Shown here: in pieces, positions 1,064 through 24,000 of the stretch | Numbering within the stretch: the first letter of the stretch is position 1 | Layout of the letters: every line of letters begins with the position of its first letter | Assembly: GCA_036985915.1 (NCBI GenBank) | Contig: BTQO01000002.1 | Span: forward strand, 3,541-27,540 | Source: Gammaproteobacteria bacterium | Lineage (GTDB): Bacteria; Pseudomonadota; Gammaproteobacteria; JAJDYQ01 | DNA: 24,000 nt | Direction of reading: 5' to 3' | The notes under the pieces: generated by a model | What the model was told of the DNA's origin: nothing | Database searches by the model: none | What the model saw: the letters and a program-made list of their open reading frames with translations, nothing else | Program-made: the position numbers and the translations under genes

Positions 1064-1206
1064 CGGGGTCACGACAAACCCGCAATCACCAGCTTTTTCT
1101 AGATAACCGCCGGCCCCGGTCTGCCTCGGCGGGGCCCAAGAACCATAAACGGCCACCTTCCGCCCGGTCAGATCGTGCGCTTGGACCCTAAACTGTGAAT
1201 ATTATC

Positions 1207-1235
1207 TTGATTGTTCATTATTCAGGTGTTATATA
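1207..1235 (+). promoter_or_regulatory. sigma70-like promoter of the tetR gene (TTGATT, 17 nt spacer, TATATA)
   Basis: TTGATT at 1207-1212, a 17-nt spacer, and TATATA at 1230-1235. The ATG at 1244 lies only ~8 nt after the -10 and has no Shine-Dalgarno, which suggests a leaderless or near-leaderless mRNA. Confidence 0.45.
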
Positions 1236-1243
1236 GTGGCACC

Positions 1244-1849
1244 ATGAACGAAACCAGACCAACAGTCACCGCTGACGACACACGGAACAGCATCATCGAA
1301 GCCGCCGAGGCCCGGTTTGAGCATTTCGGCTATCGCAAGACCACCATGGCGGAAATCGCTGGCGATCTTGGCATGTCGGCCGCTAACCTGTATCGCTACT
1401 TTGAAAACAAGGAAGACATCGTAGCCGCCTGTGCCAGTCGCTGCATGACCGAACACGTGGCCATGCTTCGGGAGGTTGTCCGCAAACAGGACACTTCGGC
1501 CGCGGATCGCCTGGAAGAGTTTATACTGGAAATCGTGCGCTATACGCATGATCAAACCCAGGACAAACCGCGCATCAACGAACTGGTCGAAACCATTACC
1601 AGCGAACGCCCGGAACTGGTCCGTCAAAAAATCGAAGCCATGGAATCGATGCTGGCCGAGATACTGGCCCACGGTAATGCAACCGGCGAATTCGACATCG
1701 AGGATGTCGTGAAAACCGCCAAAACGGTGCATGCCACCCTGGTGCTCTTCGATGTGCCCATCTTTGTCGGTCTGTATCCCCAGGAAGAATACGAGCGGAC
1801 CGCGCGGGCTGTCTCGCACTTGCTGGTTCGCGGTCTCGCCAAACATTAA
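1244..1849 (+). CDS. TetR/AcrR-family transcriptional regulator
   Basis: N-terminal TetR HTH signature IIEAAEARFEHFGYRKTTMAEIAGDLGMSAANLYRYFENKEDIV. I prefer the ATG at 1244 over the track's TTG at 1211, because the promoter elements sit inside that N-terminal extension. Confidence 0.9.
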   Translation: MNETRPTVTADDTRNSIIEAAEARFEHFGYRKTTMAEIAGDLGMSAANLYRYFENKEDIVAACASRCMTEHVAMLREVVRKQDTSAADRLEEFILEIVRYTHDQTQDKPRINELVETITSERPELVRQKIEAMESMLAEILAHGNATGEFDIEDVVKTAKTVHATLVLFDVPIFVGLYPQEEYERTARAVSHLLVRGLAKH

Positions 1850-1888
1850 AAATATTTCCAATGATTATGAATAATTCACGAAATATTT
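1850..1888. promoter_or_regulatory. putative TetR operator region between tetR and the RND gene
   Basis: Perfect 9-bp inverted repeat AAATATTTC (1850-1858) / GAAATATTT (1880-1888). It encloses the palindrome TGAAT-A-ATTCA (1868-1878). A 9/11 match to that palindrome (TGAATAATGAA, minus strand 1214-1224) lies in the spacer of the tetR promoter. Confidence 0.4.
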
Positions 1889-1921
1889 ATTGTTTAGTTG
1901 CTACCCGGGAAGTGTACCGCG

Positions 1922-6196: not shown

Positions 6197-6664
6197 ATGA
6201 GTCAAGGCGTAATCATTCCGAAGCGCAAGATCCTGCCACCGGTTTATTTTCTTGGCGCCCTGATATCCATGTTCGCGCTGGATCGCCTGATGCCAATTGC
6301 AGATACTATTCATGCGCCCTACAACATAGCAGGCCTGGTCGCTGTGGTGCTGGGTACCGGTCTTGTCCTATGGGCAGCCACCGGATTTAAGCGATCCAGT
6401 ATTACCATCCGGCCTTTTCATGACACGCCTCGATTGCATATAGACGGGCCGTACCGGTTCACGCGCAATCCAATGTACCTCGGTTTGGTGCTGGTGCTCA
6501 TCGGCAGCAACATCATGTTTGGCAGCTTGTCATCAGTATTCATCATCCCCCTGTTTTGGCTGGTAATAGATCGCCATTTCGTTAACCACGAGGAACGATT
6601 CCTTATGAGCTTGTTTGGCTACGAATACGTTTATTATCGCTTTAAAGTTCGACGCTGGATTTAA
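6197..6664 (+). CDS. isoprenylcysteine carboxyl methyltransferase (ICMT)/phospholipid methyltransferase-family membrane protein
   Basis: Multi-TM 155-aa protein with the family motif GPYRFTRNPMYLGLVLVLIG. Confidence 0.75.
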   Translation: MSQGVIIPKRKILPPVYFLGALISMFALDRLMPIADTIHAPYNIAGLVAVVLGTGLVLWAATGFKRSSITIRPFHDTPRLHIDGPYRFTRNPMYLGLVLVLIGSNIMFGSLSSVFIIPLFWLVIDRHFVNHEERFLMSLFGYEYVYYRFKVRRWI

Positions 6665-7214
6665 ACGGCACCTGGCAACAACGCTTGATCATTTGCCGGT
6701 TCAATAATTGATACCAGCGAATCAGATCAGGGAGGGAATACTGCGCATTGGCAGGACTTGAATTTGGTGTAACGTATACCCAGCTGTTACCAATTCTCTT
6801 ATTCTGAAGACCCCAGGCGATGTTCGGTACAGATGACTCTGCATAACGCAAGTAGTTTGCATACGCAACCTTGCCATGGAACCACACCATGCAGGGTTGA
6901 TACCTGATCAGCTTTTCCCTTAGCACAGGTGCCCACTTCAGATAATCCGCAGCCCTGAGCCTCGATGCATTGGCACTTGGCTTTTTGACAACATCCGTAA
7001 ACCCGATTGAATGGTTTCTTAATAGTTTCCGCATGGCCTCCCGTGAAGGTACCAGCACCTGATCAACAAGCCCTGATGCATTAAACGCACGCCAAAAGCG
7101 GTTCCGAGGATTAGCAAAGTAAAAACCCGCCTCAACTGACGGCAGCGATGGGTTGAGTCCAACCGATATCGCCTTAAGGTCAGGGGCCAGGTAATCAGGT
7201 AAGGTATTCATCAT
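6642..7214 (-). CDS. mug: G/U mismatch-specific DNA glycosylase (Mug/TDG family)
   Basis: GLNPSLPSVEAGFYFANPRNRFWRAF and VYVTPNSSPAN are colinear with E. coli Mug [26 protein letters not shown] and WVLPNPSGLS. Confidence 0.85.
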   Translation of the reverse strand: MMNTLPDYLAPDLKAISVGLNPSLPSVEAGFYFANPRNRFWRAFNASGLVDQVLVPSREAMRKLLRNHSIGFTDVVKKPSANASRLRAADYLKWAPVLREKLIRYQPCMVWFHGKVAYANYLRYAESSVPNIAWGLQNKRIGNSWVYVTPNSSPANAQYSLPDLIRWYQLLNRQMIKRCCQVPFKSSVEL

Positions 7215-7305
7215 GTCATCATATTTGTAAGTTGCAGTGCACCATCACTGCGGGATCATGGTTACGATATCCGCCAATCAATAATTGCGTATACTCCACT
7301 CACCG

Positions 7306-8208
7306 ATGCATTACACCGTCACACTGTTTCCACTTTGGGCATTGGCAATATCGGCGCTGGCACTCGCCCGGCCGGAATACTTTTCTCCTTATAAAGACGC
7401 GATCGTCCCGCTGCTGATGATCATCATGCTCAGCATAGGCATGACTTTAACCATCAAGGATTTTACCCGTGCGATCAAACGTCCAAAAGTAATCGGATTT
7501 GGTGTGTTGTTACAATACCTGGTAATGCCATTTGTTGCCTTTGCAGTATCCAGACTCCTCTCGCTACCAACAGAACTCATGATCGGCATGATCCTGGTCG
7601 GTGCGGTGCCCGGAGGCACTGCATCCAATATTGTTAGTTTTCTCGCGCGCGGTGACGTTGCGCTCTCGATCACGCTGACCGCGCTATCGACGCTCATCGC
7701 GGTGATTGCCACGCCCTGGCTGGTCTGGCTCTATGTCGGCCAGGATATCCCTGTACCAGTACTTAACATGCTGTTCACGGTATTGAAGATCGTCGTACTG
7801 CCGGTGCTGGTCGGCGTTTCAGTCAATGCGCTGCTCAAACAATACATTCACCCATTACAGCCATATCTTCCTGCAGTTTCCGTGATCGCCATTTTACTGG
7901 CCATCGCAATTATCGTGGCACTTAACAGCGAGCGTATAGCACAGGTCAGCGGCATTATCCTGCTTGCCGTGGCGCTGCACAATGCGATCGGATTAACATT
8001 GGGTTATTGGTTGACGCGGCTATCCGGCCAGGATGTCAAGACTTCCCGCACGATTGCAATCGAAGTGGGTATGCAAAACTCAGGACTGGCAGTTGCACTC
8101 GCAATCAAGCATTTTGCGGTATTAACCGCATTGCCGGGTGCATTATTCAGCGTCTGGCACAACCTGACCGGATCGGTGCTAGCGGCATATTGGTCGAATA
8201 AAGATTAA
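7306..8208 (+). CDS. bile acid:sodium symporter (BASS/SBF) family transporter
   Basis: ~300 aa polytopic protein with GAVPGGTASNI and IEVGMQNSGLA motifs typical of BASS. ATG at 7306 preferred over the track's TTG at 7285. Confidence 0.85.
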   Translation: MHYTVTLFPLWALAISALALARPEYFSPYKDAIVPLLMIIMLSIGMTLTIKDFTRAIKRPKVIGFGVLLQYLVMPFVAFAVSRLLSLPTELMIGMILVGAVPGGTASNIVSFLARGDVALSITLTALSTLIAVIATPWLVWLYVGQDIPVPVLNMLFTVLKIVVLPVLVGVSVNALLKQYIHPLQPYLPAVSVIAILLAIAIIVALNSERIAQVSGIILLAVALHNAIGLTLGYWLTRLSGQDVKTSRTIAIEVGMQNSGLAVALAIKHFAVLTALPGALFSVWHNLTGSVLAAYWSNKD

Positions 8209-8770: not shown

Positions 8771-9409
8771 TCAGGACTGCTGAAAAGCCACACCGGTACC
8801 ACCAAGCGCACAATAACCACCGGGTGGTTTAGCAAGATACTGCTGATGATAGTCCTCCGCATAATAAAACTTAGGCGCATCGATAATCTCTGTTGTGATC
8901 GAAGACATGCCCGCTGCATTCAACAGCGCCTGATACGTGTTCCTGGAGTCCAGTGCAGCCTGCATCTGCTCCTTTGAATACACGTAGATACCTGAACGGT
9001 ATTGGGTGCCAACATCATTACCCTGGCGCATTCCCTGGGTTGGATCATGCGCCTCCCAGAAGACCCTTAATAGTCTATCGAAAGAGACTGCCGCTGGATC
9101 GTAAATTACCAGAACAACCTCGTTGTGCCCTGTTTGACCGCTGCACACATCCTGGTAGGTTGGATTTTTTGTATAACCCGCCGCATAACCAACAGCCGTA
9201 CTGTATACACCTTCAGTTTCCCAGAACTTCCGTTCTGCACCCCAAAAGCAGCCTAGTCCGAACATCGCAAGTTTCATATGTTCAGGAAACGGCGGTTTTA
9301 TCGGGTTGCCGTTGACAGTGTGACGGTTACCCACCTGCATGGCTTCGGCACGCCCAGGTAAGGCCTCATCTTCGCTCGGCATCAAACTCTTTTTATTTGG
9401 CATAAACAC
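8771..9409 (-). CDS. msrA: peptide-methionine (S)-S-oxide reductase MsrA (cytoplasmic type)
   Basis: Colinear with E. coli MsrA: [19 protein letters not shown].., catalytic [13 protein letters not shown], and no signal peptide. Confidence 0.95.
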
Positions 9410-9522: not shown

Positions 9523-10401
9523 TTAATCTCCGAGATATTTATGCACGAAATCCGCTGTCCGCTGCATTGCATCCTTCGCTGCCAGGTCATCGGCAAACGT
9601 TCGTACATGCGGCGGCCTGAAATCAAACCCTCGCCCAACACCTGGGTAGACGATCACCTTTGCATCTCTTTTTTTCTCTTTCAATGCATCAATCCCGGCC
9701 AGTATCGGACGATAACGCTGGTACTGCTCGTGATCGCCAAGGAATACCAACACCGGCACATTCAGATCATTGATTTCAGGCGCGTAACGGTAGACTTGCA
9801 TAGGTTCACCTGCATTGGGATCCTGCCAATGGGGGTAGTACGAAACATAACAGGCGACCTTGTCCTTTTGACGACCCTTGGTGACCAGCGCCTTGAGTGT
9901 CATGTAGCCGCCGCGCGTGTGAGACACGGTACATATTTTTTTGCTCTTCACATCAGGCAGGGTCAACAGATAGTCAATACCCGCCGCTACATCATCTTCA
10001 ACTTCATAACGATGCTCGATTGGAAACTTCTCTATAAAATTAGCCGTCCAAATATCCGGCGCCAAAACGACAAAACCGCGCGCAGCCAGGCGGATGGGAT
10101 GCAGCCTGGTAAGATCATCAATCCCTCGCCGGCCATGCTGAAATAAAATGCCGGGATATGCGCCCTTGGCCTTCGGCCGGATTAACAAGGCTGGCACTTC
10201 AATATCCCTGCTCTTGTAGGATACTTCCTTGATAACAACTTCGTAATTCGCCGGCTGCCTGAGCTTCCCTTTTTCCCACCAGCCGTCGTCCCACCACCAC
10301 TTTTCCTTATCTTGCGGGTATTCCATTTTTACCCACGGCTCATGCATCGCCCATGCGGTGTTCGCCATCAGGTACATCAACAGCACAAGCAGTAATCTCA
10401 T
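9523..10401 (-). CDS. secreted dienelactone hydrolase-family alpha/beta hydrolase
   Basis: Signal peptide MRLLLVLLMYLMANTAWA. DLH-like core: PGILFQHGRRG, a nucleophile-elbow-like CTVSHTRGGYM, and a C-terminal His region. Confidence 0.7.
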   Translation of the reverse strand: MRLLLVLLMYLMANTAWAMHEPWVKMEYPQDKEKWWWDDGWWEKGKLRQPANYEVVIKEVSYKSRDIEVPALLIRPKAKGAYPGILFQHGRRGIDDLTRLHPIRLAARGFVVLAPDIWTANFIEKFPIEHRYEVEDDVAAGIDYLLTLPDVKSKKICTVSHTRGGYMTLKALVTKGRQKDKVACYVSYYPHWQDPNAGEPMQVYRYAPEINDLNVPVLVFLGDHEQYQRYRPILAGIDALKEKKRDAKVIVYPGVGRGFDFRPPHVRTFADDLAAKDAMQRTADFVHKYLGD

Positions 10402-10557: not shown

Positions 10558-11199
10558 ATGACCATGATAATTCGTATGCTACCCCTGACATTTACAGGAT
10601 TCCTCAGCATTTTTCTGGTTTCAGCGGCAATATCTGCCCATGCCGATGATCATGCCGTAAACGCGCCTGCCAAGACCGCGAAGGCCACATTTGCAGGCGG
10701 GTGTTTCTGGTGCATGGAGCCACCCTATGATGCCATTGATGGCGTTCTTTCGGTCACCTCCGGTTATACCGGTGGAAAGCTTGCCAACCCCACTTACGGT
10801 CAGGTCTCACGTGGCGGGACCGGTCATGCTGAGGCAGTCCAGATCATCTACGACCCGGCACGTGTAAGTTACGACGAATTACTGAGGGTTTTCTGGCGAA
10901 ATATCGACCCGCTTGCCAAAGACTATCAGTTCTGCGATTACGGCGATCAATACCGGGCTGCGATTTTCTACCACGATGATGAACAGTTTCGGCTTGCCAT
11001 GAACGCCAAGCAAGCCCTGGTGGATAGCAAACGCTTTGACAAACCGATTGTCACTGAAATAGTGCGAGCAGGTCCTTTCTACCCGGCTGAGGATTACCAC
11101 CAGGAGTATTACAAAAAGAACCCGGTGCGCTACAAGTATTACCGCTGGCGCTGTGGGCGTGACCAGCGACTGGAAGAGTTATGGGGAAAGCCTCAATGA
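10558..11199 (+). CDS. msrA: MsrA paralog with N-terminal signal peptide (predicted periplasmic methionine sulfoxide reductase A)
   Basis: Signal peptide ..FLVSAAISAHA followed by an MsrA core with FAGGCFWCMEPPYD, GYTGG..NPTY..V..G.TGHAE and AEDYHQEY. Confidence 0.85.
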   Translation: MTMIIRMLPLTFTGFLSIFLVSAAISAHADDHAVNAPAKTAKATFAGGCFWCMEPPYDAIDGVLSVTSGYTGGKLANPTYGQVSRGGTGHAEAVQIIYDPARVSYDELLRVFWRNIDPLAKDYQFCDYGDQYRAAIFYHDDEQFRLAMNAKQALVDSKRFDKPIVTEIVRAGPFYPAEDYHQEYYKKNPVRYKYYRWRCGRDQRLEELWGKPQ

Positions 11200-11327: not shown

Positions 11328-12098
11328 TTGCGGCATGCCGCGGGGGAATCCGGACAAGTGCTGGAAAACTATCAGGATTATATCGAAGCAGCCGGCAAGA
11401 CCAGGTCCTTGAAGGACATTCATGCGCTCTGTTCCGATATGTGTAACCACTATGGCTTCGATCACTTTGTATACGGAGCAAGATTTCCTACTTCTTTACT
11501 CAATCCAAAGATTGTCTTCATCAGTGGCTACCCAACACAATGGTGGGAGCGCTATAAATCAGAAAATTACATGAGGATTGACCCGCTTGTGGCGCATTGT
11601 GAGCACAACATCACGCCTATTCGCTGGGATTGCATACAAAGGGATTTGCTTGAATCACCAAACATAAGCCGCTTTATGTCAGAGGCAGTTGATAGCGGAT
11701 TACGCAACGGTTTGAGTATACCTGTTCATACAAGCAATGGTGAGTTTGCCATGCTCAATTTTTCCACCTCAGATAGCCCTGAGAAATCTTCTGATCATAT
11801 TATTCAAGGTACACCCGAAGTGTACTTGCTTACCAACTACATCCACGAAGCTGTAACCCGCATCGTAGATGCTCTGGGAGAAGATAAGCCTCTCGTTAAA
11901 CTCACAAACCGGGAACGAGAGTGCCTTTTGTGGGCTGCTGATGGTAAAACGGCCTGGGAAACAGCCCAGATACTCAAAGTCTCCGAAAGAACTATTGTCT
12001 GGCATATCCAGAATGCCCAATCAAAGCTCAAAACCGTCAGCAGACAACAAACGGTCGCAAGAGCCATCTCAAGAGGCATCATCTCTCCGCAACTTTAA
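11328..12098 (+). CDS. luxR: LuxR-family acyl-homoserine-lactone-responsive transcriptional regulator
   Basis: The autoinducer-binding domain has the conserved W/Y/D-P/W/G positions (TQWWERY, RIDPLV, PIRWD, GLSIPV). C-terminal LuxR HTH: LTNRERECLLWAADGKTAWETAQILKVSERTIVWHIQNA. The true start may be the GTG at 11358, preceded by GGGGGA, rather than the TTG at 11328. Confidence 0.92.
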   Translation: MRHAAGESGQVLENYQDYIEAAGKTRSLKDIHALCSDMCNHYGFDHFVYGARFPTSLLNPKIVFISGYPTQWWERYKSENYMRIDPLVAHCEHNITPIRWDCIQRDLLESPNISRFMSEAVDSGLRNGLSIPVHTSNGEFAMLNFSTSDSPEKSSDHIIQGTPEVYLLTNYIHEAVTRIVDALGEDKPLVKLTNRERECLLWAADGKTAWETAQILKVSERTIVWHIQNAQSKLKTVSRQQTVARAISRGIISPQL

Positions 12099-12167
12099 AG
12101 GCTGGCCTTAAACGCATGCTCTTGCGTATAAGCAATACTTCTTTTGTTTTCAATATGTTACGCATGC

Positions 12168-12187
12168 ACCTGTAAGATCTTACAGTT
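12168..12187. promoter_or_regulatory. lux box (LuxR-type operator) upstream of the first luxI
   Basis: ACCTGTAAGATCTTACAGTT contains a perfect 16-bp palindrome, CTGTAAGATCTTACAG (12170-12185). Compare the Vibrio fischeri lux box ACCTGTAGGATCGTACAGGT. The centre lies ~70 bp upstream of the luxI ATG at 12248. Confidence 0.85.
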
Positions 12188-12247
12188 ACGCCGCGTCAGT
12201 ACTCTGTCGTTTACTTATCCGGGGTGGTTTTTCCGGAGGTGTCGACG

Positions 12248-12895
12248 ATGTACAAAATATTCTGGGGCAAGGCAAACACTCTAAATCAGGCGATACTCGC
12301 TTCATTATTTTCATTCCGCTATCAGGTTTTCCGGCAACGGCTTGGATGGGATGTAGTTTGCAATGAGGGCCAGGAAACAGACCGATTCGATACTATAAAC
12401 CCGGCCTATATTGTTGCGTTAAACAAGAAGGGTGTTGCCGAGGGTTGTTTCCGGCTACTGCCAACAACAGGTGATTACATGCTAAAGCATGTTTTTCCTG
12501 AAATGATTGATGGCGATGACGCACCATGCGATGAAACTATTTGGGAGCTAAGCCGATTCGCTGTTATGCCTCGAAAAAAGAGTGCAGCAGTAAAAGGCGG
12601 CTGCTGCGCGGTAACGTTCCAGATTATCCGCAGTGTCTATGACTTCGCGGTAGCACATGGTATTAACCGGTATGTGTTTGTTACCAGCGTTGCCGTTGAA
12701 CGGCTATTGCGGCGACTTAAATTGCCAGTATCACGCTTTGGTAGCGGACATACATATCGACTCGGAAAAGTGCGATCTGTGGTGTTATGGGTTGATATTA
12801 ACGATCAATTCCGCCAAGCAATGTACGGCGACGCAGTGCCTGTAACACCGGATATAAATCTACTCAGCGGCTCCGGGTATGAACAGGCAGCCTGA
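12248..12895 (+). CDS. luxI: acyl-homoserine-lactone synthase, LuxI family (copy 1, canonical motifs)
   Basis: FRYQVFRQRLGWDV, GQETDRFD, FRLLPTTGDYML and IWELSRFAV are all LuxI-family signature blocks. GGAGG at 12235-12239 precedes the ATG at 12248. Confidence 0.92.
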   Translation: MYKIFWGKANTLNQAILASLFSFRYQVFRQRLGWDVVCNEGQETDRFDTINPAYIVALNKKGVAEGCFRLLPTTGDYMLKHVFPEMIDGDDAPCDETIWELSRFAVMPRKKSAAVKGGCCAVTFQIIRSVYDFAVAHGINRYVFVTSVAVERLLRRLKLPVSRFGSGHTYRLGKVRSVVLWVDINDQFRQAMYGDAVPVTPDINLLSGSGYEQAA

Positions 12896-12905
12896 TCAGA
12901 GGCAA

Positions 12906-13550
12906 ATGCTTATGCCAATCATAACAGCCAAAATAGGAGATCCTGCCCTTACCCCCGTACTTCTCGCCGATATGTTCAGCTTCCGTGCCCGTGTCTTTTC
13001 ACAGCAACTGGGCTGGGAGCGCGAATCGGACCAGGGGCGGGATAACCTTGATGACCTCAACCCGGTGTACGTCATATCACTTGATCACGGCCGGGTGAAT
13101 GGCTGCCTGCGGCTGCTGCCAACGGACGGCTGGTATATGCTCGGTGACGAATTTCCTGAACTGCTATGGGGAGAGCAGCCACCGCGCAGTCCGGTGGTCT
13201 GGGAAGTCAGCCGTTTTGCGGCGCAGGAAATAAATGCACCATGCGAATCATCAGTACAGATAGCGTCTCCTGACATCGCTTGGGAATTGATTTTATCCGC
13301 CATGCGCTTTGCGCTGAATGCCGGGGTCGAAACTTTCGTTGCAGTTGCCAGCACTGACGTTGAATCCTATCTGAAGTCAGTCGGCCTGCGAATGCGTCGC
13401 TTTGGTCTAGGCCATCAGGTGATGGTTTCCGGCTGCGCGATTACTGCACTAAAAATAAATGTTACCGCATCCCTGGCAAGGATAGACCTGGGAACACTCT
13501 CAGGAAACCAACACCATGCCGCAGCCACTCAACAACGCTCTGGAGATTAA
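12906..13550 (+). CDS. luxI: acyl-homoserine-lactone synthase, LuxI family (copy 2, divergent)
   Basis: FRARVFSQQLGWE, LRLLPTDGWYML and VWEVSRFAA are conserved, but the acidic block reads QGRDNLDD. Candidate starts are ATG 12879 (overlaps copy 1), 12906 (AGAGG upstream) and 12912. Confidence 0.85.
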   Translation: MLMPIITAKIGDPALTPVLLADMFSFRARVFSQQLGWERESDQGRDNLDDLNPVYVISLDHGRVNGCLRLLPTDGWYMLGDEFPELLWGEQPPRSPVVWEVSRFAAQEINAPCESSVQIASPDIAWELILSAMRFALNAGVETFVAVASTDVESYLKSVGLRMRRFGLGHQVMVSGCAITALKINVTASLARIDLGTLSGNQHHAAATQQRSGD

Positions 13551-13552
13551 CA

Positions 13553-14005
13553 TTGCTAAGAATACTCATGGTTGGTGCCTCGTCACGGACGGCATCTTTT
13601 TTTAATACCATTTGCGGCAAACGGGGACTGGCAGTGACAATACAGGATGACCCCGAAAGGGCATCCGAATTGCTGCGCAGCAATCCTGATACCTATGACT
13701 GGGTCATCGTAGAGGGCGATGATACCGCTGAACACACCGGTATTATTTCCAATACCCTGTCATCTAAAGATTCCAGGATACCACTGGCACTGCTGTATCA
13801 CCCGGTACAGTCATTTGGTGCGGTAGACGATATGTGGGCGGGCTCGCGACCACAGCAAAGATCACCTCAATATCATTCCCCTGAATTGCTTTCGCAACCA
13901 GAAGAACCCTGCCTGGTAACAAAACAACAGCACACTGTTACTGACTATGACCCGGTGGTGCTTGAATACCACGCCCCCTGTAAACCGAGGGCCAGGAAAA
14001 ACTAA
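13553..14005 (+). CDS. hypothetical 150-aa protein with a degenerate receiver(REC)-like N-terminal half and a P/Q-rich tail
   Basis: A TTG start lies 2 nt after the luxI-2 stop, with GGAGA 6 nt upstream. RILMVG..(helix)..LAVTIQ..(helix)..YDWVIVEGDD..IPLALLY follows the beta-alpha pattern of CheY-like receivers but lacks the N-terminal acidic pair. Family assignment is by eye only. Confidence 0.5.
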   Translation: MLRILMVGASSRTASFFNTICGKRGLAVTIQDDPERASELLRSNPDTYDWVIVEGDDTAEHTGIISNTLSSKDSRIPLALLYHPVQSFGAVDDMWAGSRPQQRSPQYHSPELLSQPEEPCLVTKQQHTVTDYDPVVLEYHAPCKPRARKN

Positions 14006-14032
14006 GGAAACTCTGATTTATTCTGAGTTTCC
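14006..14032. other. 8-bp perfect inverted repeat directly after the orphan ORF's stop
   Basis: GGAAACTC (14006-14013), an 11-nt spacer, then GAGTTTCC (14025-14032). No U-tract follows, so it could be a weak terminator or a protein-binding site. Confidence 0.3.
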
Positions 14033-14053
14033 GCGGTACAAGGACGATGTACA

Positions 14054-14127
14054 CGACTCCATGGCAAGGATTGTTCCCGACAATCCTTTTGCATTTCCTC
14101 CATCCATGGAGGTAGATGGAGGAGATA
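14054..14127 (+). repeat. 74-bp direct repeat, copy 1
   Basis: CGACTCCATGGCAAGGATTGTTCCCGACAATCCTTTTGCATTTCCTCCATCCATGGAGGTAGATGGAGGAGATA. It is 73/74 identical to 14179-14252, a 125-bp period. Confidence 0.95.
14066..14090 (+). terminator. terminator-like hairpin inside repeat copy 1 (an identical copy lies at 14191-14215)
   Basis: AAGGATTGT-TCCCG-ACAATCCTT is a 9-bp perfect stem with a 5-nt loop, running into TTTT on the + strand only. Confidence 0.35.
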
Positions 14128-14178
14128 GAGCCGCGTCGGGAACGGCGGCCGAAGGATGTACAAGTGTCGCGAGAGGCG

Positions 14179-14252
14179 CGACTCCTTGGCAAGGATTGTT
14201 CCCGACAATCCTTTTGCATTTCCTCCATCCATGGAGGTAGATGGAGGAGATA
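14179..14252 (+). repeat. 74-bp direct repeat, copy 2
   Basis: Same sequence as 14054-14127 apart from one A-to-T difference (14061 vs 14186). Confidence 0.95.
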
Positions 14253-14430
14253 CGAGCCCATGGATGGGCGAAGGTAGAACAATGCAGGAGCAATTGTCGA
14301 GAATGAAGCACGACTGCATGGACGCAGAAGGTAGAGCAACGCATGGAGCAGTTGCCGAGGAGCCAGAGCCGAGGATGCCGGGAGCGGCTGTACCGCCAAA
14401 ATCGATCCTCGCAGGGAATTGATTTTGTGA

Positions 14431-14458
14431 GGAAAACGGAAACTTGTTTTCGTTTTCC
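14431..14458 (+). terminator. terminal 13-bp hairpin closing the GGA-rich region
   Basis: GGAAAACGGAAAC-TT-GTTTTCGTTTTCC has one mismatch. No clean U-tract follows, so terminator function is uncertain. Confidence 0.3.
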
Positions 14459-14593
14459 GTGCGCTGATAATTCTTAGATGGAATTATTCTTAAGCTTCCC
14501 TAAAACTAGGGTCTGCGTTCTTTTTGTGTAATCGCCTTTCTTTTTATATGCTGATCAAATTCGCCCTGCGAAAAACCATCAGCCTGGTCAAAA

Positions 14594-16318
14594 CTACATG
14601 AGCGGTCTTGGTTCTTCGATGCCATAACCTTGAGCATAATTGACACCTATCTCCTTCAATTTCTTTAAGATAGCATCATCTTCAACAAATTCGGCAATGG
14701 TTTGTTTGCCCATCACATGGCCTATTTCGTTAATGGATTTAACCATTGCATAATCGATAGGGTCATTCACGATATTCTTAACAAAAGTGCCATCTATTTT
14801 AAGATAATCGACTGGCAGATTTTTTAGATAGGCAAATGAGGAAAATCCACTGCCAAAATCGTCAAGAGCAAATTTACAGCCATCTTCCTTCAGGGTATGT
14901 ATAAAATGTTTTGCATCGTTCAGGCTGGTAATTGCCGCTGTTTCTGTAATTTCAAAGCAGATCTTCTCTGGCGGTATTGAACTATTATTCAGCGCATGGA
15001 CTATAACACTTAAAATATGATCGTCACTAAGGGTCTGTCCAGAAATATTTATCGAACAAATCTGAAGATTCTCGAGTTTCTCCGGATTGGCATCCAGCCA
15101 GGAAAAGGCCCTTTCGACCACCCACTGATCTAACTTGCTTGATAGGTTAAAACGCTCTGCCGCAGGAAGGAAATTTCCTGGTAGCACCATATTTCCTTCC
15201 TCATCCTCCATCCTGACGAGCAGCTCATAATGTTCTCTTTGTTGTCCGTTTATTATCGGCATTATCTTTTGGTAATAAAGATGAAAGCGATCTTCCCTGA
15301 TTGCCTTGGTTATTGAACTCACCAATTTCATTTCTTTATTTTGCTGCGCCAGTTCACTATCGGATTGATCAAACATCCGTATACGATTTCGACCGGCATC
15401 TTTCGCAGCGAACAAGGCTGCATCAGCCATATTCATCGCGCTGGATATTTTCTTCACGGCGGTATTTACGGGTGCGACCCCGATACTGGAGCTTATATCA
15501 AATGACTTATCTTCCCAGGTAAATACATGAGCCCGGATCGCATCCCTGAGACGCATAATGACCTTGTCAGCCTGTAGCATTGGACAGATCATCAGCAATA
15601 TTCCAAACTCATCACCATCAATTCTTGCGACTATGTCGTTCTGTTTTAGCAAACCCCTTAAGAGACTGCCTACCTGGCGCAATAGTTCGTCACCTGCAAC
15701 GTATCCACATGTATTATTAATGACCTTGAATTGATCGAGGTCGATGTAGCATAACGTGTGCTCAATATCATTTAAGCTGGTTATATCCATGCTTTGCTGT
15801 AGACGATGTTCGAACTCCCGCCGATTGACAAGCCCAGTTAAAGGATCGTGCGTTTCCTGATATGACAGCTTTTCCGAGAGTGTATGTGCAACTGTTGTGT
15901 CTTCGCAGACCATTAAAAGCCTTTCCTCATTGCCGGCTTCCCGAACTATTCGAACAGTATTCCTGTACCACATGCCATCACCCGACTTACGCACCATCTT
16001 TGACTGGCGCACATGAACAATATCTGGTTGCTGAAGGAAGGCGGTAATCCAGGTCTGTAAAGCGTCCGTTAAACCCTCCGGATATACCACTGATATCGAC
16101 TGACCTAATAATTCATCAAGAGTGTAGCCCAGTTGTTCGGCGCCGAATCGGTTAACCGATAGGATTATTCCGTCCGCATTCAGTGTAAAAAAGATTGCTG
16201 GCGTATCATCGTAAAGCTCACGGTTGCGAACTTCAAATGCGCGCATATTTGGATCCTTTACGTTGTTCTTATTCATGCGGTTCCCTTTTTCTGCTTCCTG
16301 GCTTTTAATTGTGCTCAT
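14594..16318 (-). CDS. PAS-GGDEF-EAL c-di-GMP signalling protein (degenerate DGDEF motif, apparently intact EAL)
   Basis: PAS: FFTLNADGIILSVNRFGAEQLGY. GGDEF domain with RIDGDEFGILL. EAL domain with YELLVR, SINISG, CFEITE, ALDDFGSGFSS, LKIDG, IAEFVE and QGY. Confidence 0.92.
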   Translation of the reverse strand: MSTIKSQEAEKGNRMNKNNVKDPNMRAFEVRNRELYDDTPAIFFTLNADGIILSVNRFGAEQLGYTLDELLGQSISVVYPEGLTDALQTWITAFLQQPDIVHVRQSKMVRKSGDGMWYRNTVRIVREAGNEERLLMVCEDTTVAHTLSEKLSYQETHDPLTGLVNRREFEHRLQQSMDITSLNDIEHTLCYIDLDQFKVINNTCGYVAGDELLRQVGSLLRGLLKQNDIVARIDGDEFGILLMICPMLQADKVIMRLRDAIRAHVFTWEDKSFDISSSIGVAPVNTAVKKISSAMNMADAALFAAKDAGRNRIRMFDQSDSELAQQNKEMKLVSSITKAIREDRFHLYYQKIMPIINGQQREHYELLVRMEDEEGNMVLPGNFLPAAERFNLSSKLDQWVVERAFSWLDANPEKLENLQICSINISGQTLSDDHILSVIVHALNNSSIPPEKICFEITETAAITSLNDAKHFIHTLKEDGCKFALDDFGSGFSSFAYLKNLPVDYLKIDGTFVKNIVNDPIDYAMVKSINEIGHVMGKQTIAEFVEDDAILKKLKEIGVNYAQGYGIEEPRPLM

Positions 16319-16538
16319 AAATTATGCTGATACTCCAAGGTTCGCACTTATGTGCTATATAAAGACACGCAACCGGCATGGCCAGGACATGCGCCGGCTA
16401 CAATTCTATGGGCTATAACTAACCCTTAAGCAGCGTGGCAAACTGTGTGCATTTACACCACGCGCCTTCATCAATGCGATTCTTTATATTCTTGTCTGGA
16501 TGCCCGTCGATCATTATCGAATATAGCCATAACCGTCA

Positions 16539-16558
16539 AGCTGTAACTTCTTACAGGT
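16539..16558. promoter_or_regulatory. second lux-box-like palindrome in the divergent GGDEF-EAL / sugar dehydrogenase intergenic region
   Basis: AGCTGTAACTTCTTACAGGT. Its 16-bp core CTGTAACTTCTTACAG (16541-16556) matches the luxI lux-box core at 14/16 positions and the V. fischeri lux box at 15/20. It lies ~150 bp from the GTG at 16698 and ~230 bp from the start at 16318. Confidence 0.55.
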
Positions 16559-16697: not shown

Positions 16698-17936
16698 GTG
16701 CTAACCATAAACAACACGTGCTTAGGCAAATACCTGCATCTGATCGTGCTCACGGGGTTGTTCTCAGGCTATGTCTACTCTCCTGCCTTTGCCGGCACCG
16801 GTACTATTAAGGCCATCACACAACAATTATCAACACCGGCAGGCCGGGTAGAAATATCCATACCTAAGGGCTATACGCTCGATTTACTCTCAAGCAACCT
16901 GCGCTCACCACGCTTGATAAACTTCGCTGAGAATGGCGATTTGTTCATTGGCTCCCGTTCCGGGGCGGTCTACAGGTTGCAACCTCCTTATACTGAGGCA
17001 GATATTCTCGTCAGTCTCAATGACTATCCCCACAGCGTTGCCTTACGGCAGGGGGAAATGTTTATCGCACAAACACATGGCCTGTATCGCGCGCCTTATT
17101 TGCCGGGGCAGGACAGAATCAAACAACAGGATTTGCAGCTGGTCGCCAAACTACCGGGTGGACCGGGACACAACAGCCGCACCGTGCGTATCGGACCTGA
17201 CGGCAAAGTTTATGTGAGCCTTGGGATTGCCGGGAATTGCAGTGACCAGTACCTCGACCCATCCTATCCATTTGAAGACCGGCGTGGCGGTGTGCTGGTG
17301 CTGGATGAATCCCAACTGCGTCCGGTGTTCAGAACATTTGCATCGGGCTTAAGGAATCCAGTCGGTTTTGACTGGCAACCGGATACAGACATTATGTATG
17401 CCAGTAATAATGGCCCCGACCATCTGGGGTATGAACAACCACCGGAGTATTTCAGCAAGCTGATACCCCAATCTTTTCATGGCATGCCCTGGTTTTGGTT
17501 CGATGGCACAAAGATGGTGCGCGATCACTGTGTTGGCAGCACACCACCCAGAATAGACGCTAACCCACCGGTAGCCACGTTCCCTGCCCGCAACGCGCCC
17601 ATGGCCGTTGCATTTGTACCGAATGGCGCCATGGATGAACGGTTCAGGGGCGATGCCATCGTGGCGCTGCATGGCTCATGGGCCACACAACCCACAGGCG
17701 GTTTTAGTGGCGAGCCAAAAAGCCGCCGTGAACCAAAATTGGTGGTGGTGCGGTTTGAAGATGGCCAGGCAGTTCGTGTTGATGACTTGCTGACCGGATT
17801 TCAATCATCTAACGGAGACCGATGGGCCCGCCCGGTGGGTGTTGCCATAGGTCCGGATGGTGCGTTGTATTTCACCAGTGATTCTGGCCTTGAAGGCCTC
17901 TTCAGGCTCAGGCGAAATGGGCTAAATTCTTTATAA
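16698..17936 (+). CDS. PQQ-dependent sugar (glucose/sorbosone) dehydrogenase-family beta-propeller, secreted
   Basis: Hydrophobic N-terminal signal. Propeller motifs: GLRNPVGFDW, YASNNGPDHLGYEQPPEY, and RPVGVAIGPDGALYFTSD. GTG start preceded by GAGG. Confidence 0.8.
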   Translation: MLTINNTCLGKYLHLIVLTGLFSGYVYSPAFAGTGTIKAITQQLSTPAGRVEISIPKGYTLDLLSSNLRSPRLINFAENGDLFIGSRSGAVYRLQPPYTEADILVSLNDYPHSVALRQGEMFIAQTHGLYRAPYLPGQDRIKQQDLQLVAKLPGGPGHNSRTVRIGPDGKVYVSLGIAGNCSDQYLDPSYPFEDRRGGVLVLDESQLRPVFRTFASGLRNPVGFDWQPDTDIMYASNNGPDHLGYEQPPEYFSKLIPQSFHGMPWFWFDGTKMVRDHCVGSTPPRIDANPPVATFPARNAPMAVAFVPNGAMDERFRGDAIVALHGSWATQPTGGFSGEPKSRREPKLVVVRFEDGQAVRVDDLLTGFQSSNGDRWARPVGVAIGPDGALYFTSDSGLEGLFRLRRNGLNSL

Positions 17937-21117: not shown

Positions 21118-22224
21118 CTAACCTAGCCCGCCAAAAGCATATAAATAAACACCAATCCCGATCAACAATGCTGCAGAAAGTAAACCTATCAAGATAAGCA
21201 ACTTCTTCGGTAGCTTTTGTGATCGTTTGCGTAACTTGATTTTGCGACTTTGTTTTTTTGCACCCTTGGCAGGGGCGGGCCGCCTGTCTGTGGTCGTGGT
21301 TCCGCCAAAATTCGGTACCGGATCAAGTCCCTGGAGCATACGAGACCAGTCATTGGCATTTTGCGGTCTATCTACCTCTCTGAAACACAAGGCATGATCG
21401 ATGGCTCGTAAAAAGCGCGTTGAAAACTGGCGGCCCCCGACCTTAGTCGCCGGTTCATAGGGGTCCTGGGTTTGGTTCAAAAAGGAATGGCTTCTCACCA
21501 ATGCATCCACCGGAGGCCGGCCAGTGAGCGCCAGGTATAGCGTGGCACCAAATGCGTAGATATCACTCCACGGCCCTTGCGACCTGGCATCATCATTATA
21601 TTGTTCAAACGGTGCGAACCCCGGTGTTACCAGGCTGGTCATCGTGCTGGCAGGTCCGGTTTTAGCCACGGCCTGTCTTGCTGAACCAAAGTCCAGCAAC
21701 ACCGGGCTGCCATCTGTTCTTACGAATATATTGGCGGGCTTTATATCCCGATGCACAAAACCTGCCTCGTGTACATGCGCAAGCCCGTCACAGATTGGTA
21801 CACAAATCTGCAACAGGCTTTGTTCATCATGGAAAAGACCCTTGCGCATGAGGTCCTGCATATCCTTGCCATCGGCATATTCCATCACCATGTACACCGT
21901 ATTATTGTCCTGAAAAACATTGTGGACCTTGATGACGTTTGGATGCCGGAACTCTTCCAGGGTTTTGCCTTCAGACAGGAACCGTTCCATGCCCCAGTCG
22001 TAAAGACCCTTCTGCTCATCTGTTAACGGGCGCACCGTGTCTTTTTCATCGCGGTACGCCAGATCAGATGGCAGATATTCCTTGATGGCGACCGTTTGAT
22101 TGAAGTCGGTGTCATGGGCCTTGTAGGTGATGCCAAACCCACCATGCCCAATCACGGATTCAATCTGGTAACCGTGGAGCATCTTTCCCTTTCTCAAGGC
22201 ATTTCGATGCTTTTGCTGACTCAC
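21118..22224 (-). CDS. Hanks-type serine/threonine protein kinase with a C-terminal membrane anchor
   Basis: GHGGFGITYKA..VAIKEY (Gly-loop and Lys), HRDIKPANIF, DFGSAR and TPGFAPFEQ. A K/R-rich linker is followed by a TM helix, LLILIGLLSAALLIGIGVYLYAF. GTG start with AAGGGGG upstream. An ATG at 22182 is an alternative start. Confidence 0.9.
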   Translation of the reverse strand: MSQQKHRNALRKGKMLHGYQIESVIGHGGFGITYKAHDTDFNQTVAIKEYLPSDLAYRDEKDTVRPLTDEQKGLYDWGMERFLSEGKTLEEFRHPNVIKVHNVFQDNNTVYMVMEYADGKDMQDLMRKGLFHDEQSLLQICVPICDGLAHVHEAGFVHRDIKPANIFVRTDGSPVLLDFGSARQAVAKTGPASTMTSLVTPGFAPFEQYNDDARSQGPWSDIYAFGATLYLALTGRPPVDALVRSHSFLNQTQDPYEPATKVGGRQFSTRFLRAIDHALCFREVDRPQNANDWSRMLQGLDPVPNFGGTTTTDRRPAPAKGAKKQSRKIKLRKRSQKLPKKLLILIGLLSAALLIGIGVYLYAFGGLG

Positions 22225-22671
22225 TCCCCCTATCCCCCTTGGATATTCAGATCTACAGTTGTAAGGCCCGCCGTCTTATTCTAGTAGAGATCAATATTAG
22301 CGATATTTTTTATCTCATACCATCGCTAAGGCAATAAAAACACTGGATTTTTCAACCGGGCGCTCAAGACCCGCGCCGCAATCATGCCAGGATCGGCACC
22401 GCCATGGGCAAACTGCACCCTTTGATTGATCTTGACTGGCGTTGTGTGATTGATTGTAGCAACGGTTTAACAACCATTGCGTTGACAAGACATAACCGGC
22501 TGGATTCCATGTTTTGGCTTGAATAGGACAATATGCGGATATAGTGTCTGACTATAATGAATAAGACCATGGAAAATGGGTTCCGCGTATCAACAAGTTA
22601 TGCGAACATACCACTATAAAAATGGTGTGCAACCAGCGTATTCTGATACCAATTAGATTGTAGGGACAATT

Positions 22672-23115
22672 ATGGTCACCAAGAAGCACCTTAATATCCA
22701 ACGCATTGATACTGAAACCAATAGCACTCACTGCTGGGTCGTAGTTGTGCAACGGCGCAGCAAGATCTATAGAAAAATGTTCTCTGATGGTGTGTATGGC
22801 GGTAAGCGCAAAGCATTGCAAAACGCAATAATATGGAGAGATAAGATTATTGCTAAATATCCTCCGCTAAGTAAAAAACAATACATCACTATAAAACGCA
22901 AGAATAATAAATCTGGAGTGCCGGGTGTGTGCCGTTTCCAGAAACACGGTCGTTGGCATTGGGTAACCAGTTGGGCTACTGGCGTAGGGAAAAGTAAACA
23001 ACTAGCATTCTCTTCCGATGAATATGGTGAAGAAAAAGCGTTTAAGAAAGCCTGCGCTGCTCGGCGGAAGGCAGTAAAACAAGTAAGCGGTGTTTTTCTC
23101 CCGAATAGTGGTTGA
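22672..23115 (+). CDS. AP2/ERF-like DNA-binding domain protein (two AP2-like half-repeats)
   Basis: SGVPGVCRF..GRWHWVTSW..KQLAFSSDEYGEEKAFKKACAARRKAV has the bacterial AP2-domain pattern. A weaker N-terminal copy reads HCWVVVV..KMFSDGVYGGKRKALQNAIIWR. Confidence 0.7.
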   Translation: MVTKKHLNIQRIDTETNSTHCWVVVVQRRSKIYRKMFSDGVYGGKRKALQNAIIWRDKIIAKYPPLSKKQYITIKRKNNKSGVPGVCRFQKHGRWHWVTSWATGVGKSKQLAFSSDEYGEEKAFKKACAARRKAVKQVSGVFLPNSG

Positions 23116-23180
23116 ATGCACGTGCATCACATAACAAAAGGCTAAACCCGACAAACTGTTATACGCAAGAAAAACGATAA

Positions 23181-23420
23181 ATGGCGCCAACGATTCATAG
23201 GGAGAAAGGCTACAGGTTCTTCTTCTTCTCAAGAGAGGAACCACGTATGCATATCCACGTATACTGTAGAGACGGGGAAGCGAAATTTTGGCTGGAACCT
23301 TAAATCGAAATAGCAAAGAACTATAATCTTACTCAGAAGCAGCTTGGCGAGGCCCAGCAAATTATCGAGGCACACGAAAATGAGTTTAAATCCGCTTGGA
23401 AAGAACATCTCGGAAGTTGA
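23181..23420 (+). pseudogene. DUF4160-family gene interrupted by an in-frame TAA
   Basis: Translation gives MAPTIHREKGYRFFFFSREEPRMHIHVYCRDGEAKFWLEP-stop(23301-23303)-IEIAKNYNLTQKQLGEAQQIIEAHENEFKSAWKEHLGS. Across the stop it matches the DUF4160 pattern (GYRFFFYS.E...PHVHV...GEAKFWL.P....A.N.G). Confidence 0.65.
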
Positions 23421-23640
23421 GGTAACAAATATTACCAAACATGGATTGTGGCTCCTGTCCGGAGACAATGAAATGTTCCTCTCTTATGATGATTTTCCGT
23501 GGTTCAAGGATGTGCCGGTCGGAAAGATACTCAGTGTAGAAGAACCAAGCCCAGGCCATTTTTATTGGCCAGAATTGGATGTTGATCTTGGAATTCAGTC
23601 CATCGAGCATCCTGAACAGTTCCCGTTAAAAACAAAATAA
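23380..23640 (+). CDS. DUF2442-family protein (usual partner of DUF4160)
   Basis: GLWLLSGDNEMFLSYDDFPWFKD..YWPELDVDLGIQSIEHPEQFPL matches the DUF2442 signature. ATG at 23380 preferred over the track's TTG at 23344. It overlaps the DUF4160 3' end. Confidence 0.7.
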   Translation: MSLNPLGKNISEVEVTNITKHGLWLLSGDNEMFLSYDDFPWFKDVPVGKILSVEEPSPGHFYWPELDVDLGIQSIEHPEQFPLKTK

Positions 23641-23820
23641 CTCGCGTATAACGCGACATTACATGGCGCAGATATATGACAAGTCCATTTATGTCACATC
23701 AGAAATAATCATCCTACGTTCGGCTATTTAATGCATACGATATGTATAAGAGGAAAAATGCACTGACCCGAATGGCACATTAGGACCAATAATTCTAGTT
23801 AGCTGGAAAGGGAAACGATT

Positions 23821-24000
23821 ATGAAAATGCCATTATTCGTTGTCGCGTTGCTTATGATAAGCATGAATGCGGTAGCAGCAGAAGACTCCTTGAAGTCCGG
23901 TACGCTGCGTGGCTATGAAAAGCGATGTAAAGAAGCGTTAACGTCAAGAGGATACTCAAAAGTGGTCGTTAAGAAGGAATGTTCTTGTGAGGTGGCGGTC
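23821..24000 (+). CDS. secreted hypothetical protein, N-terminal fragment (continues past the window)
   Basis: The ATG at 23821 opens a frame with no stop before the window end. It encodes MKMPLFVVALLMISMNAVAAEDS.., a signal-peptide-like N-terminus. This ORF is not in the supplied track. Confidence 0.45.
   Translation, partial: MKMPLFVVALLMISMNAVAAEDSLKSGTLRGYEKRCKEALTSRGYSKVVVKKECSCEVAV

Follow-up and report, generated by a model that had tools for sequence, protein, structure and literature searches.

A probable REP-like repeat cluster, and not a dedicated Csr-type sponge RNA, beside a quorum-sensing cassette with a likely link to a GGDEF-EAL gene

GTAG-tagged repetitive extragenic palindromes (REPs) are mobilised by RAYT tyrosine transposases, and they occur in clusters and as intragenic copies, including copies in Thioalkalivibrio uvrA (Di Nocera et al., 2013; PMC3733652). 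A head-to-tail heterodimer arrangement is described as rare among REPs (PMC3733652). In Nitrospira, direct control of a neighbouring GGDEF/EAL gene through a LuxR box has been shown experimentally (PMC8553950). The present study concerns a stretch of 24 kb from contig BTQO01000002.1 of a Gammaproteobacteria bacterium (the window) and, within it, a region at 11.3-16.6 kb that contains quorum-sensing (QS) genes of the acyl-homoserine lactone (AHL) type, a gene for a PAS-GGDEF-EAL protein, and a 495-nt segment dense in GGA hairpins. The original prediction read this region as one candidate module that integrates QS, a Csr-type RNA, and cyclic di-GMP (c-di-GMP) turnover. Our reading, to which we give a probability of about 0.7, is that the segment is a strain-specific REP-like cluster between convergent operons and not a dedicated Csr/Rsm sponge gene, and that the QS cassette is real and has a likely link to the EAL gene. 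The segment and its parts are as follows.

13998-14007: AAAACTAAGG, left copy of the imperfect direct repeat (10 bp) on either side of the indel, with its right counterpart, AAAACTAGGG, at 14502-14511
14006-14500, plus strand: strain-specific 495-nt segment, a GGA-hairpin cluster ("Csr-like RNA"); the core, 14052-14390, derives from repeats, and the edges are unique
14054-14252, plus strand: recent tandem duplication with 74-nt copies at 14054-14127 and 14179-14252 (125-nt period, 99% identical)
14072-14123 and its duplicate 14197-14248, minus strand: reversed related element nested inside the ACGACTCC hairpin (weak R1 match, 13.1 bits)
14086-14157, plus strand: third forward unit (R1 match, 22.5 bits); by sequence reading, its first hairpin, ACGACTCC, starts near 14053
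14242-14299, plus strand: second, diverged repeat unit with hairpins GCCCAUGGAUGGGC and ACAAUGCAGGAGCAAUUGU (R1, 40.7 bits, E = 1e-13)
14310-14359, plus strand: canonical 50-nt two-hairpin unit, ACGACTGCATGGACGCAGAAGGTAGAGCAACGCATGGAGCAGTTGCCGAG (R1, 79.5 bits)
14431-14458, plus strand: 13-bp AU-rich hairpin at the 3' edge, without a U tract and not reported by the terminator scan

R1 is a covariance model that we built from the 48-50-nt repeat unit. In the window it finds three forward units and, inside hairpin loops, two weak units in reverse orientation; the rest of the 24 kb has none. The third unit is a long variant that is also present in three other loci (L114, L121, and L168). The GGA-rich hairpin region of the original prediction is there and is the densest GGA site of the window: positions 14006-14460 hold 22 GGA in 455 nt, the window maximum, against a window mean of 6.3 (sd 2.9). 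The segment folds at -192 kcal/mol, and the z-score of its minimum free energy (MFE) is -6.5 against shuffled sequence. About nine of the 22 GGA are unpaired (at least two of three nt) in the MFE fold and the other 13 are buried in stems; the mean probability of being unpaired is 0.40 over GGA and 0.32 overall.

RNA families were searched with Rfam 15 at gathering score, and no match was found in the window; no Csr/Rsm family appeared down to E = 10 in 13500-14700. There is no promoter-like site at 13900-14050 and, as had been predicted, no GacA-type box near the segment (TGTAAG-N6-CTTACA, up to three mismatches). Nothing indicates a promoter of its own, and plus-strand expression would come only by read-through from the lux-box promoter of the QS operon. 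No strong terminator follows orfX, the last gene of that operon, by terminator scan or sequence reading. The hairpin at 14431-14458 has no U tract and is therefore not a canonical intrinsic terminator. Two identical plus-strand terminator-like hairpins, AAGGATTGTTCCCGACAATCCTT then TTGCATTT, lie at 14066-14088 and 14191-14213. If active, they would stop read-through from the luxI operon before most of the GGA hairpins.

Two short JGI contigs stand for closer strains. L002 extends from the hydrolase gene upstream of luxR to the start of luxI-2 and has 94% nucleotide identity to the window, and L083 runs from the end of luxI-2 through orfX into the EAL gene, most of which it includes. A Logan contig, L001, is 100% identical to the window and ends 26 nt into the segment. 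L083 aligns to window positions 13323-14005 (93.1%) and 14501-16074 (92.6%), and 14006-14500 is wholly missing; the distance from the orfX stop to the EAL stop is 90 nt. The strain of L083 thus keeps the module genes while lacking the 495-nt segment. Loci of more distant relatives were collected by a scan with a LuxR alignment, and the segment is not at the QS loci of about 60 of them (R1 scan of 1.08 Mb, with one unrelated copy, in L040). The segment is not conserved at a syntenic site in these related genomes. GGA-rich sites 3' of luxI in relatives, found by a density scan, were rejected as counterparts: the L007 site is response-regulator coding sequence, and in the other relatives the genes 3' of luxI are EAL, response-regulator, kinase, or NYN genes.

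The repeat unit is ACGAC-TGCATGGATGCA-GGAGGTAGA-GCAACGCATGGAGCAGTTGC-CGAG, in which two GTAG-tagged hairpins are arranged head to tail over 48-50 nt. Hairpin 2 follows an invariant GGTAGA, and hairpin 1 follows G-N-A-CGA or, within arrays, GGTACGA; all unit loops carry A(N)GGA. A metagenome scan with an exact 20-mer of one hairpin gave at least 120 matches, whose flanks are unrelated to one another. When the window was compared with 120 of these loci by blastn, only 14052-14390 matched, never the flanking genes or the segment edges. R1 identifies 113 copies in the metagenomic loci. The one copy in the 1.08 Mb of QS-clade loci is from an unrelated Lysobacteraceae metagenome-assembled genome (MAG; L040), in which an intergenic site matches 53 nt of the segment at 94% identity. 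No luxR or luxI lies near the 120 other copies. Base pairing holds in 97.5% of cells of the R1 alignment, and compensatory changes occur in 10 of 12 pairs, which supports both stems; none of 500 shuffles reaches the observed values, and a slid control comes nowhere near them.

Copies of the unit also occur as arrays (L084, L087, L129, and L195) and within genes. An in-frame array is present in uvrA (L084 1166-1380, open reading frame (ORF) 422-3514), and in-frame single units are present in the NifU linker (L101 and L109) and in a RAYT-like gene (L092 1804-1867). Excising exactly 48 nt from the RAYT-like gene restores HMHCVWT. Three sites (L092, L086, and L104) can be reconstructed as a 48-nt insertion without target-site duplication (TSD). 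Six Pseudoalteromonas chromids carry the unit in up to five places each, inside a larger repeat of about 230 nt (L204/L205). Intergenic units have no clear orientation bias relative to neighbouring ORFs and occur on either strand; in long ORFs, 11 are sense and three antisense by a crude ORF heuristic. No Rfam family was found in 20 repeat-bearing loci, no copy of the unit in a phage collection, and nothing in the literature specific to the repeat sequence or to CsrA-binding interspersed repeats. Two other descriptions of the unit did not hold. It does not fit a miniature inverted-repeat transposable element, as it has no terminal inverted repeats (TIRs) and the three reconstructed sites show no TSD, and preferential siting in the loops of host palindromes is unsupported (duplex-energy test, p = 0.18).

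REP families are usually confined to one species or genus. The unit departs from the usual REPs in being a fixed 48-50-nt head-to-tail heterodimer and in being near-identical in this MAG, in the Lysobacteraceae MAG, in Pseudoalteromonas, and in many sediment and freshwater metagenomes. In other respects it is close to GTAG-tagged REPs (PMC3733652): both are short hairpins (5-7 bp stems) after GTAG or GTAC; both occur as singletons, dimers, and clusters; both are present or absent between strains and have copies in ORFs, including uvrA; and both lack TIR and TSD. The one copy within a RAYT-like gene is a further likeness; no RAYT gene lies in the window. Rickettsia palindromic elements, as they are cited in PMC3733652, are selfish repeats that stand in frame in protein-coding genes. 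They resemble our unit in its in-frame copies in uvrA, the NifU linker, and the RAYT-like gene, and differ from it in size (about 100-150 nt versus 48 nt), sequence, and host range. The repeat family is the most unusual thing in the region.

Some repeat-bearing loci have features of their own. At least 10 (L040 2600-2760, L088, L099, L108, L116, L197, L202, L179, L115, and L188) share conserved flanks in the order GATCGGAAAAATGGACCGC, unit, CGAGTAGATCAATCCTAAGTCCGACAGGCTCCTAG, which suggests a second conserved element or an untranslated region that carries the unit. In L040, the unit with these flanks abuts the 5' end of a DEAD-box helicase gene. In L163, the unit (325-344) lies about 100 nt from a homologue (449-1198, 58% amino acid identity) of the window's dienelactone-hydrolase-family gene, and this locus may stem from an organism more distantly related to the source. 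The Pseudoalteromonas repeat sites (L204/L205) adjoin genes of the ICMT, uracil-DNA-glycosylase, and bile-acid:sodium-symporter families. The same three families are adjacent in the window (6197-6664, 6642-7214, and 7285-8208; 6197-8208 as a whole), probably as a coincidence of a conserved gene cluster.

We propose that the cluster is a selfish REP-like interspersed repeat of a kind that is dispersed, nested, and polymorphic in many Gammaproteobacteria, and that it has lodged between two convergent operons, a typical site of accumulation for such elements. Read-through from luxI, if it reaches the cluster, would expose about nine CsrA-type GGA loops. Side effects on mRNA 3' ends are possible, and effects on CsrA availability less so. 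CsrB-like loop sequences make CsrA binding by the segment plausible, and any sponge activity would be incidental.

The genes and sites of the QS part of the region, with domains assigned by Pfam and NCBIfam, are these.

11358-12098, plus strand: luxR, AHL-binding transcription factor, 246 aa from the called start (Pfam, L001 gene call)
12170-12185: lux box 1, CTGTAAGATCTTACAG, perfect 16-bp palindrome 5' of luxI-1 (exact pattern search)
12248-12895 (ORF from 12224), plus strand: luxI-1, AHL synthase, 215 aa (PF00765, 7.6e-32)
12912-13550 (ORF from 12879), plus strand: luxI-2, divergent second AHL synthase, 212 aa (PF00765, 1.2e-24)
13553-14005, plus strand: orfX, small protein of 150 aa coupled to luxI (synteny, family alignment, AF2 model)
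14594-16318, minus strand: PAS-GGDEF-EAL protein, convergent with the luxI operon (Pfam EAL, 7.8e-65; NCBIfam)
16541-16556: lux box 2, CTGTAACTTCTTACAG, within the 379 nt that separate the EAL gene from a divergent dehydrogenase-like gene (exact pattern search)
16698-17936, plus strand: secreted glucose/sorbosone-dehydrogenase-like beta-propeller gene, alternative target of box 2 (weak Pfam GSDH; signal-peptide-like N-terminus)

The region at 11.3-16.6 kb holds a real AHL quorum-sensing cassette of luxR, lux box, luxI-1, luxI-2, and orfX. LuxR has the autoinducer-binding and helix-turn-helix domains (Autoind_bind, 1.7e-39; GerE, 1.5e-15), there are LuxI-type synthases, and a palindromic box stands 5' of luxI. 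The one LuxR and two LuxI genes originally predicted are thus present by Pfam. The luxR ORF is open from a TTG at 11328. Both luxI genes are intact, and the LuxI-1 translation has the conserved R/F/W, D..D, RLLPT, and WE(L/V)SRF motifs. LuxR homologues with 45-52% identity are encoded in MAGs that carry the labels Thiogranum, Thiohalobacter, Sulfuricaulis, Arhodomonas, and others, and LuxI-1 is 45-50% identical to the single LuxI of relatives. The cassette belongs to a LuxR/LuxI clade of sulfur-oxidising Gammaproteobacteria that includes the Thiogranum, Thiohalobacter, Sulfuricaulis, and Arhodomonas relatives. LuxI-2 is 32-33% identical to LuxI-1. A word search of 5.8 billion proteins returned only LuxI-2 itself, as a 100% identical protein annotated from a "Gammaproteobacteria bacterium" MAG, and as sole query it had no match in the scan of genome contigs. 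The more distant relatives have a single luxI; the luxI-1/luxI-2 pair is kept in the sister strains (L002 and L083), with a luxI-2 dN/dS of 0.39 versus the sister strain.

Directly upstream of luxR, two MsrA (PMSR) paralogues, at 8771-9409 (minus strand) and 10558-11199 (plus strand), flank a dienelactone-hydrolase-family gene at 9523-10401. The second MsrA has a hydrophobic, signal-like N-terminal extension. The order MsrA, hydrolase, MsrA, luxR is the same in L001 and L002.

Lux boxes were searched over the 24 kb with the exact pattern CTGTAA-N4-TTACAG; the looser clade pattern, CTGTNANNNNTNACAG, has 10 specified bases. The exact pattern occurs only at 12170-12185 and 16541-16556. The CTGTNANNNNTNACAG palindrome is present in the luxR-luxI spacer, upstream of luxI, of 38 of 40 relatives and is therefore the lux box of the clade. 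Chance would give about 0.02 matches to it in 24 kb. The relatives' loci (1.19 Mb) contain 53 boxes, essentially one per locus, and a second box is found in only one of about 80 loci; the second box of the window is thus unusual and far above chance. The original prediction had noted a lux-box-like site at the EAL gene, and the site proves to be an exact second box that fits the clade consensus. Its distance is 223 nt to the ATG of the EAL gene and 142 nt to where the opposite gene starts. Because the box is palindromic and stands in a divergent intergenic region, its target is ambiguous. Promoter-like hexamers on the minus strand overlap or abut it and point to the EAL gene; a plus-strand promoter toward the dehydrogenase-like gene is conceivable.

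Small regulators encoded within QS loci include RsaL, RsaM/TofM, and TraM. orfX is a new conserved member of such a cassette. Like these regulators, it is small, conserved, and located inside a luxR/luxI cassette, where its position predicts co-transcription with luxI. Unlike them, it is 3' of luxI and not between luxI and luxR, and its N-terminus is receiver-like; no sequence or fold similarity to RsaL, RsaM/TofM, or TraM was found with Pfam, NCBIfam, Foldseek, or the PDB profile. The gene starts with TTG 3 nt after the luxI-2 stop, with GGAG 8 nt before the TTG, and its homologue in L007 overlaps luxI by ATGA. Syntenic homologues stand directly after luxI in at least 16 relatives, and 19 database proteins belong to the family; an exhaustive phmmer search gave one close homologue and three weak matches. 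Its dN/dS versus the sister strain is 0.39, equal to that of luxI-2, indicating purifying selection. orfX is therefore a real, conserved, translationally coupled gene of the cassette and represents an uncharacterised family.

The original prediction also described orfX as receiver-like. The protein has no Pfam or NCBIfam match. Its N-terminal half resembles a degenerate receiver, and its C-terminal part has the motif VFEYHAP.K. In the AlphaFold 2 (AF2) model with the family alignment, residues 1-82 have pLDDT 80-90 and the topology b-a-b-a-b-a-b, and the remainder is disordered. Foldseek against the PDB gave nothing at E <= 1e-3, only generic alpha/beta matches. Against PDB sequences, the family profile matched receiver domains best, weakly (E = 0.05-0.3, spanning beta1-beta3). 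At beta3 the family has DW...D-G, a pattern reminiscent of the phospho-acceptor region. The acidic residue at the end of beta3 is D in at least 90% of members and E54 in the window protein, and the beta1 acidic pair is absent. With E54 and without the beta1 pair, receiver-like is a weakly supported name for what would be a pseudo-receiver. Its most likely role would be that of a modulator of QS or EAL output.

The GGDEF motif of the EAL protein is degenerate (DGDEF). The EAL catalytic motifs are intact in the translation, namely YELLVR (ELL), SINISG, EITE, DDFGSG, KIDGTF (KID), AEFVE, and AQGY (QGY), so the protein is likely a c-di-GMP phosphodiesterase. The dN/dS of the gene versus the sister strain is 0.23. 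A CsrD-like reading of the protein was rejected, as the similarity is that of generic domains (122.7 bits versus a cut-off of 663) and the EAL site is intact.

Cassettes of the form luxR-luxI-orfX-(GGDEF)-EAL occur in about two dozen related genomes. In many relatives, luxI is followed on the same strand by a small ORF, which overlaps the luxI stop or directly adjoins it, and then by a (PAS-)GGDEF-EAL gene; in others, the place after luxI is taken by a gene for a NarL-type response regulator, for a histidine kinase, or for a NYN protein. The EAL gene of the window is convergent with the cassette, unlike this same-strand arrangement. The association of QS with EAL genes is real and conserved as a theme, and it has precedent. 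In the Nitrospira NspR1/NspI system, a single lux box is common to nspI and a divergent GGDEF/EAL gene (PMC8553950). Our locus resembles it in that a LuxR-type box stands beside a GGDEF/EAL gene neighbouring the QS genes, and in that the divergent spacer around the box allows bidirectional control. It differs in that the EAL-side box is separate, 4.4 kb from the luxI box, that the EAL gene is convergent with the synthase operon, and that regulation here is predicted from sequence. This precedent makes the QS-EAL link a known kind of wiring (PMC8553950).

A direct link from QS to c-di-GMP turnover is plausible in view of the second consensus box and the clade-wide luxR-luxI-orfX-EAL synteny, and the cassette probably also controls the neighbouring c-di-GMP-degrading enzyme. 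AHL-bound LuxR would activate the synthase operon in positive feedback, and it would activate the EAL gene, the opposite dehydrogenase-like gene, or both. Cell density would thereby feed into c-di-GMP degradation. Of the three-layer wiring originally proposed, then, the connection between QS and c-di-GMP holds up, resting on box 2 and the clade synteny. The Csr-type RNA layer does not: it is missing in L083 and at the QS loci of about 60 relatives, no Csr/Rsm model recognises it, and its unit is dispersed in at least 120 contexts. Since the segment is a strain-specific cluster of a widespread repeat, an integrated three-layer module is not supported. The clustering of "all three layers" is thus a strain-specific accident of repeat insertion or loss and not conserved wiring.

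Several observations weigh against this interpretation. On the side of the QS link, the EALs linked to the cassette in relatives are 22-29% identical to the EAL protein of the window and are not its orthologues; its nearer counterparts, at 37-40%, are encoded by PAS-GGDEF-EAL genes that lie 5' of luxR in L017, L022, and L030. Binding at box 2 and its direction of activation are predictions. On the side of the cluster, the roughly nine GGA in loops (e.g., CUGCAUGGACGCAG) closely resemble CsrB hairpins, and the edges at 14006-14051 and 14391-14500 are unique and not repeat-derived by blastn, as might suit the 5' and 3' ends of a real small RNA (sRNA) gene. No TIR or TSD was seen, and flank complementarity was not above control (duplex-energy test, p = 0.18). 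The window has no transposase gene, RAYT or other, and 1.86 Mb of loci yielded a single RAYT-like gene, itself interrupted by a unit (L092). Finally, the sister strain could have lost the segment. The L083 junction reads AAAAATTAATACCAGGG and is not a clean empty site, so insertion here and loss in the sister both fit.

Such a loss is the starting point of a reading that we regard as possible, though on the unlikely side, in which the segment is ancestral and was deleted in the sister between the 10-bp direct repeats, perhaps as a lineage-specific sRNA gene built from or invaded by units. The imperfect repeats AAAACTAAGG and AAAACTAGGG that bound the segment, its unique edges, and the imperfect sister junction agree with this. 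A simple repeat-mediated deletion, however, leaves one repeat copy, which is not what AAAAATTAATACCAGGG shows, and no outgroup carries the segment; the 99%-identical duplication and the nested reversed units indicate recent, ongoing repeat dynamics. Slightly less likely is a role at mRNA 3' ends without any Csr function, in which the hairpins, as in Escherichia coli REPs and bacterial interspersed mosaic elements, would block 3' exonucleases and read-through and insulate the luxI operon from the EAL gene. The very stable fold (-192 kcal/mol, z = -6.5) and the terminator-like hairpins at 14066-14088 and 14191-14213 speak for such a role, and the convergent genes, 90 nt apart in the sister strain, have no evident terminators. 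Roles of REPs in termination and mRNA stabilisation have been summarised (PMC3733652). Yet the sister strain manages without the cluster, and insulation would be a possible consequence and not a selected function.

The sponge RNA of the original prediction would be the lux-box-driven tail of the luxI-1/luxI-2/orfX transcript and would titrate CsrA at high density. RsmW of Pseudomonas is a 3'-UTR-derived, Gac-independent sponge RNA (UTR, untranslated region), and our segment is like it in possibly being expressed as an mRNA tail. The segment has the orientation of the luxI operon, begins directly after it with no strong terminator between, and has unique 5' and 3' edges and a stable hairpin at its end. 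Like CsrB, CsrC, RsmX, RsmY, and RsmZ, it has many GGA (22, the window maximum), of which about nine are in loops of short hairpins with the CsrB-like A(N)GGA(U) context, and its length of about 350-450 nt is comparable. Unlike these RNAs, it is matched by no Csr/Rsm covariance model up to E = 10, lacks a GacA box, a promoter, and a U-tract terminator of its own, and has less than half of its GGA exposed (13 of 22 are in stems). It is made of a dispersed repeat whose units lie on either strand relative to neighbours and inside ORFs, and it is not conserved even in a sister strain with flanks of about 93% identity that keeps the whole QS cassette and the EAL gene. No copy is near luxR or luxI in about 60 relatives, and none of the 120 other copies has luxR or luxI nearby. 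No csrA was found in the window or in 1.86 Mb of loci, which is uninformative on genome content. We therefore judge a dedicated sponge RNA improbable. Less probable still is a bolder version in which the unit is an undescribed, horizontally spreading repeat with real CsrA/RsmA sites in its conserved A(N)GGA loops, whose clusters seed sponge RNAs, and which here, by a cluster that reached the 3' tail of the AHL-synthase operon, would have produced a QS-driven CsrA sponge beside a QS-controlled c-di-GMP phosphodiesterase. The reading that we prefer remains that of a strain-specific REP-like cluster beside a real QS cassette.

Further downstream, at window positions 22000-24000, AT and GC skew are strongly positive and the GC content falls to 0.42-0.45. 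This stretch encodes an AP2-domain protein (22672-23115), whose gene lies next to one for a Ser/Thr kinase (21118-22224, minus strand). This part of the window may be foreign or mobile DNA.

A module joining QS, Csr, and c-di-GMP would have been new wiring, and as an evolved unit it is not supported. What the region does hold is a very small, unusually widespread REP-like repeat with CsrB-like GGA loops, which is found in frame even in essential genes. It also carries a warning that GGA density alone can mimic a sponge RNA where REP-like clusters occur. With their clade-wide QS cassette, tied to GGDEF-EAL genes and orfX, sulfur-oxidising Gammaproteobacteria offer a place to test whether LuxR controls c-di-GMP turnover directly.

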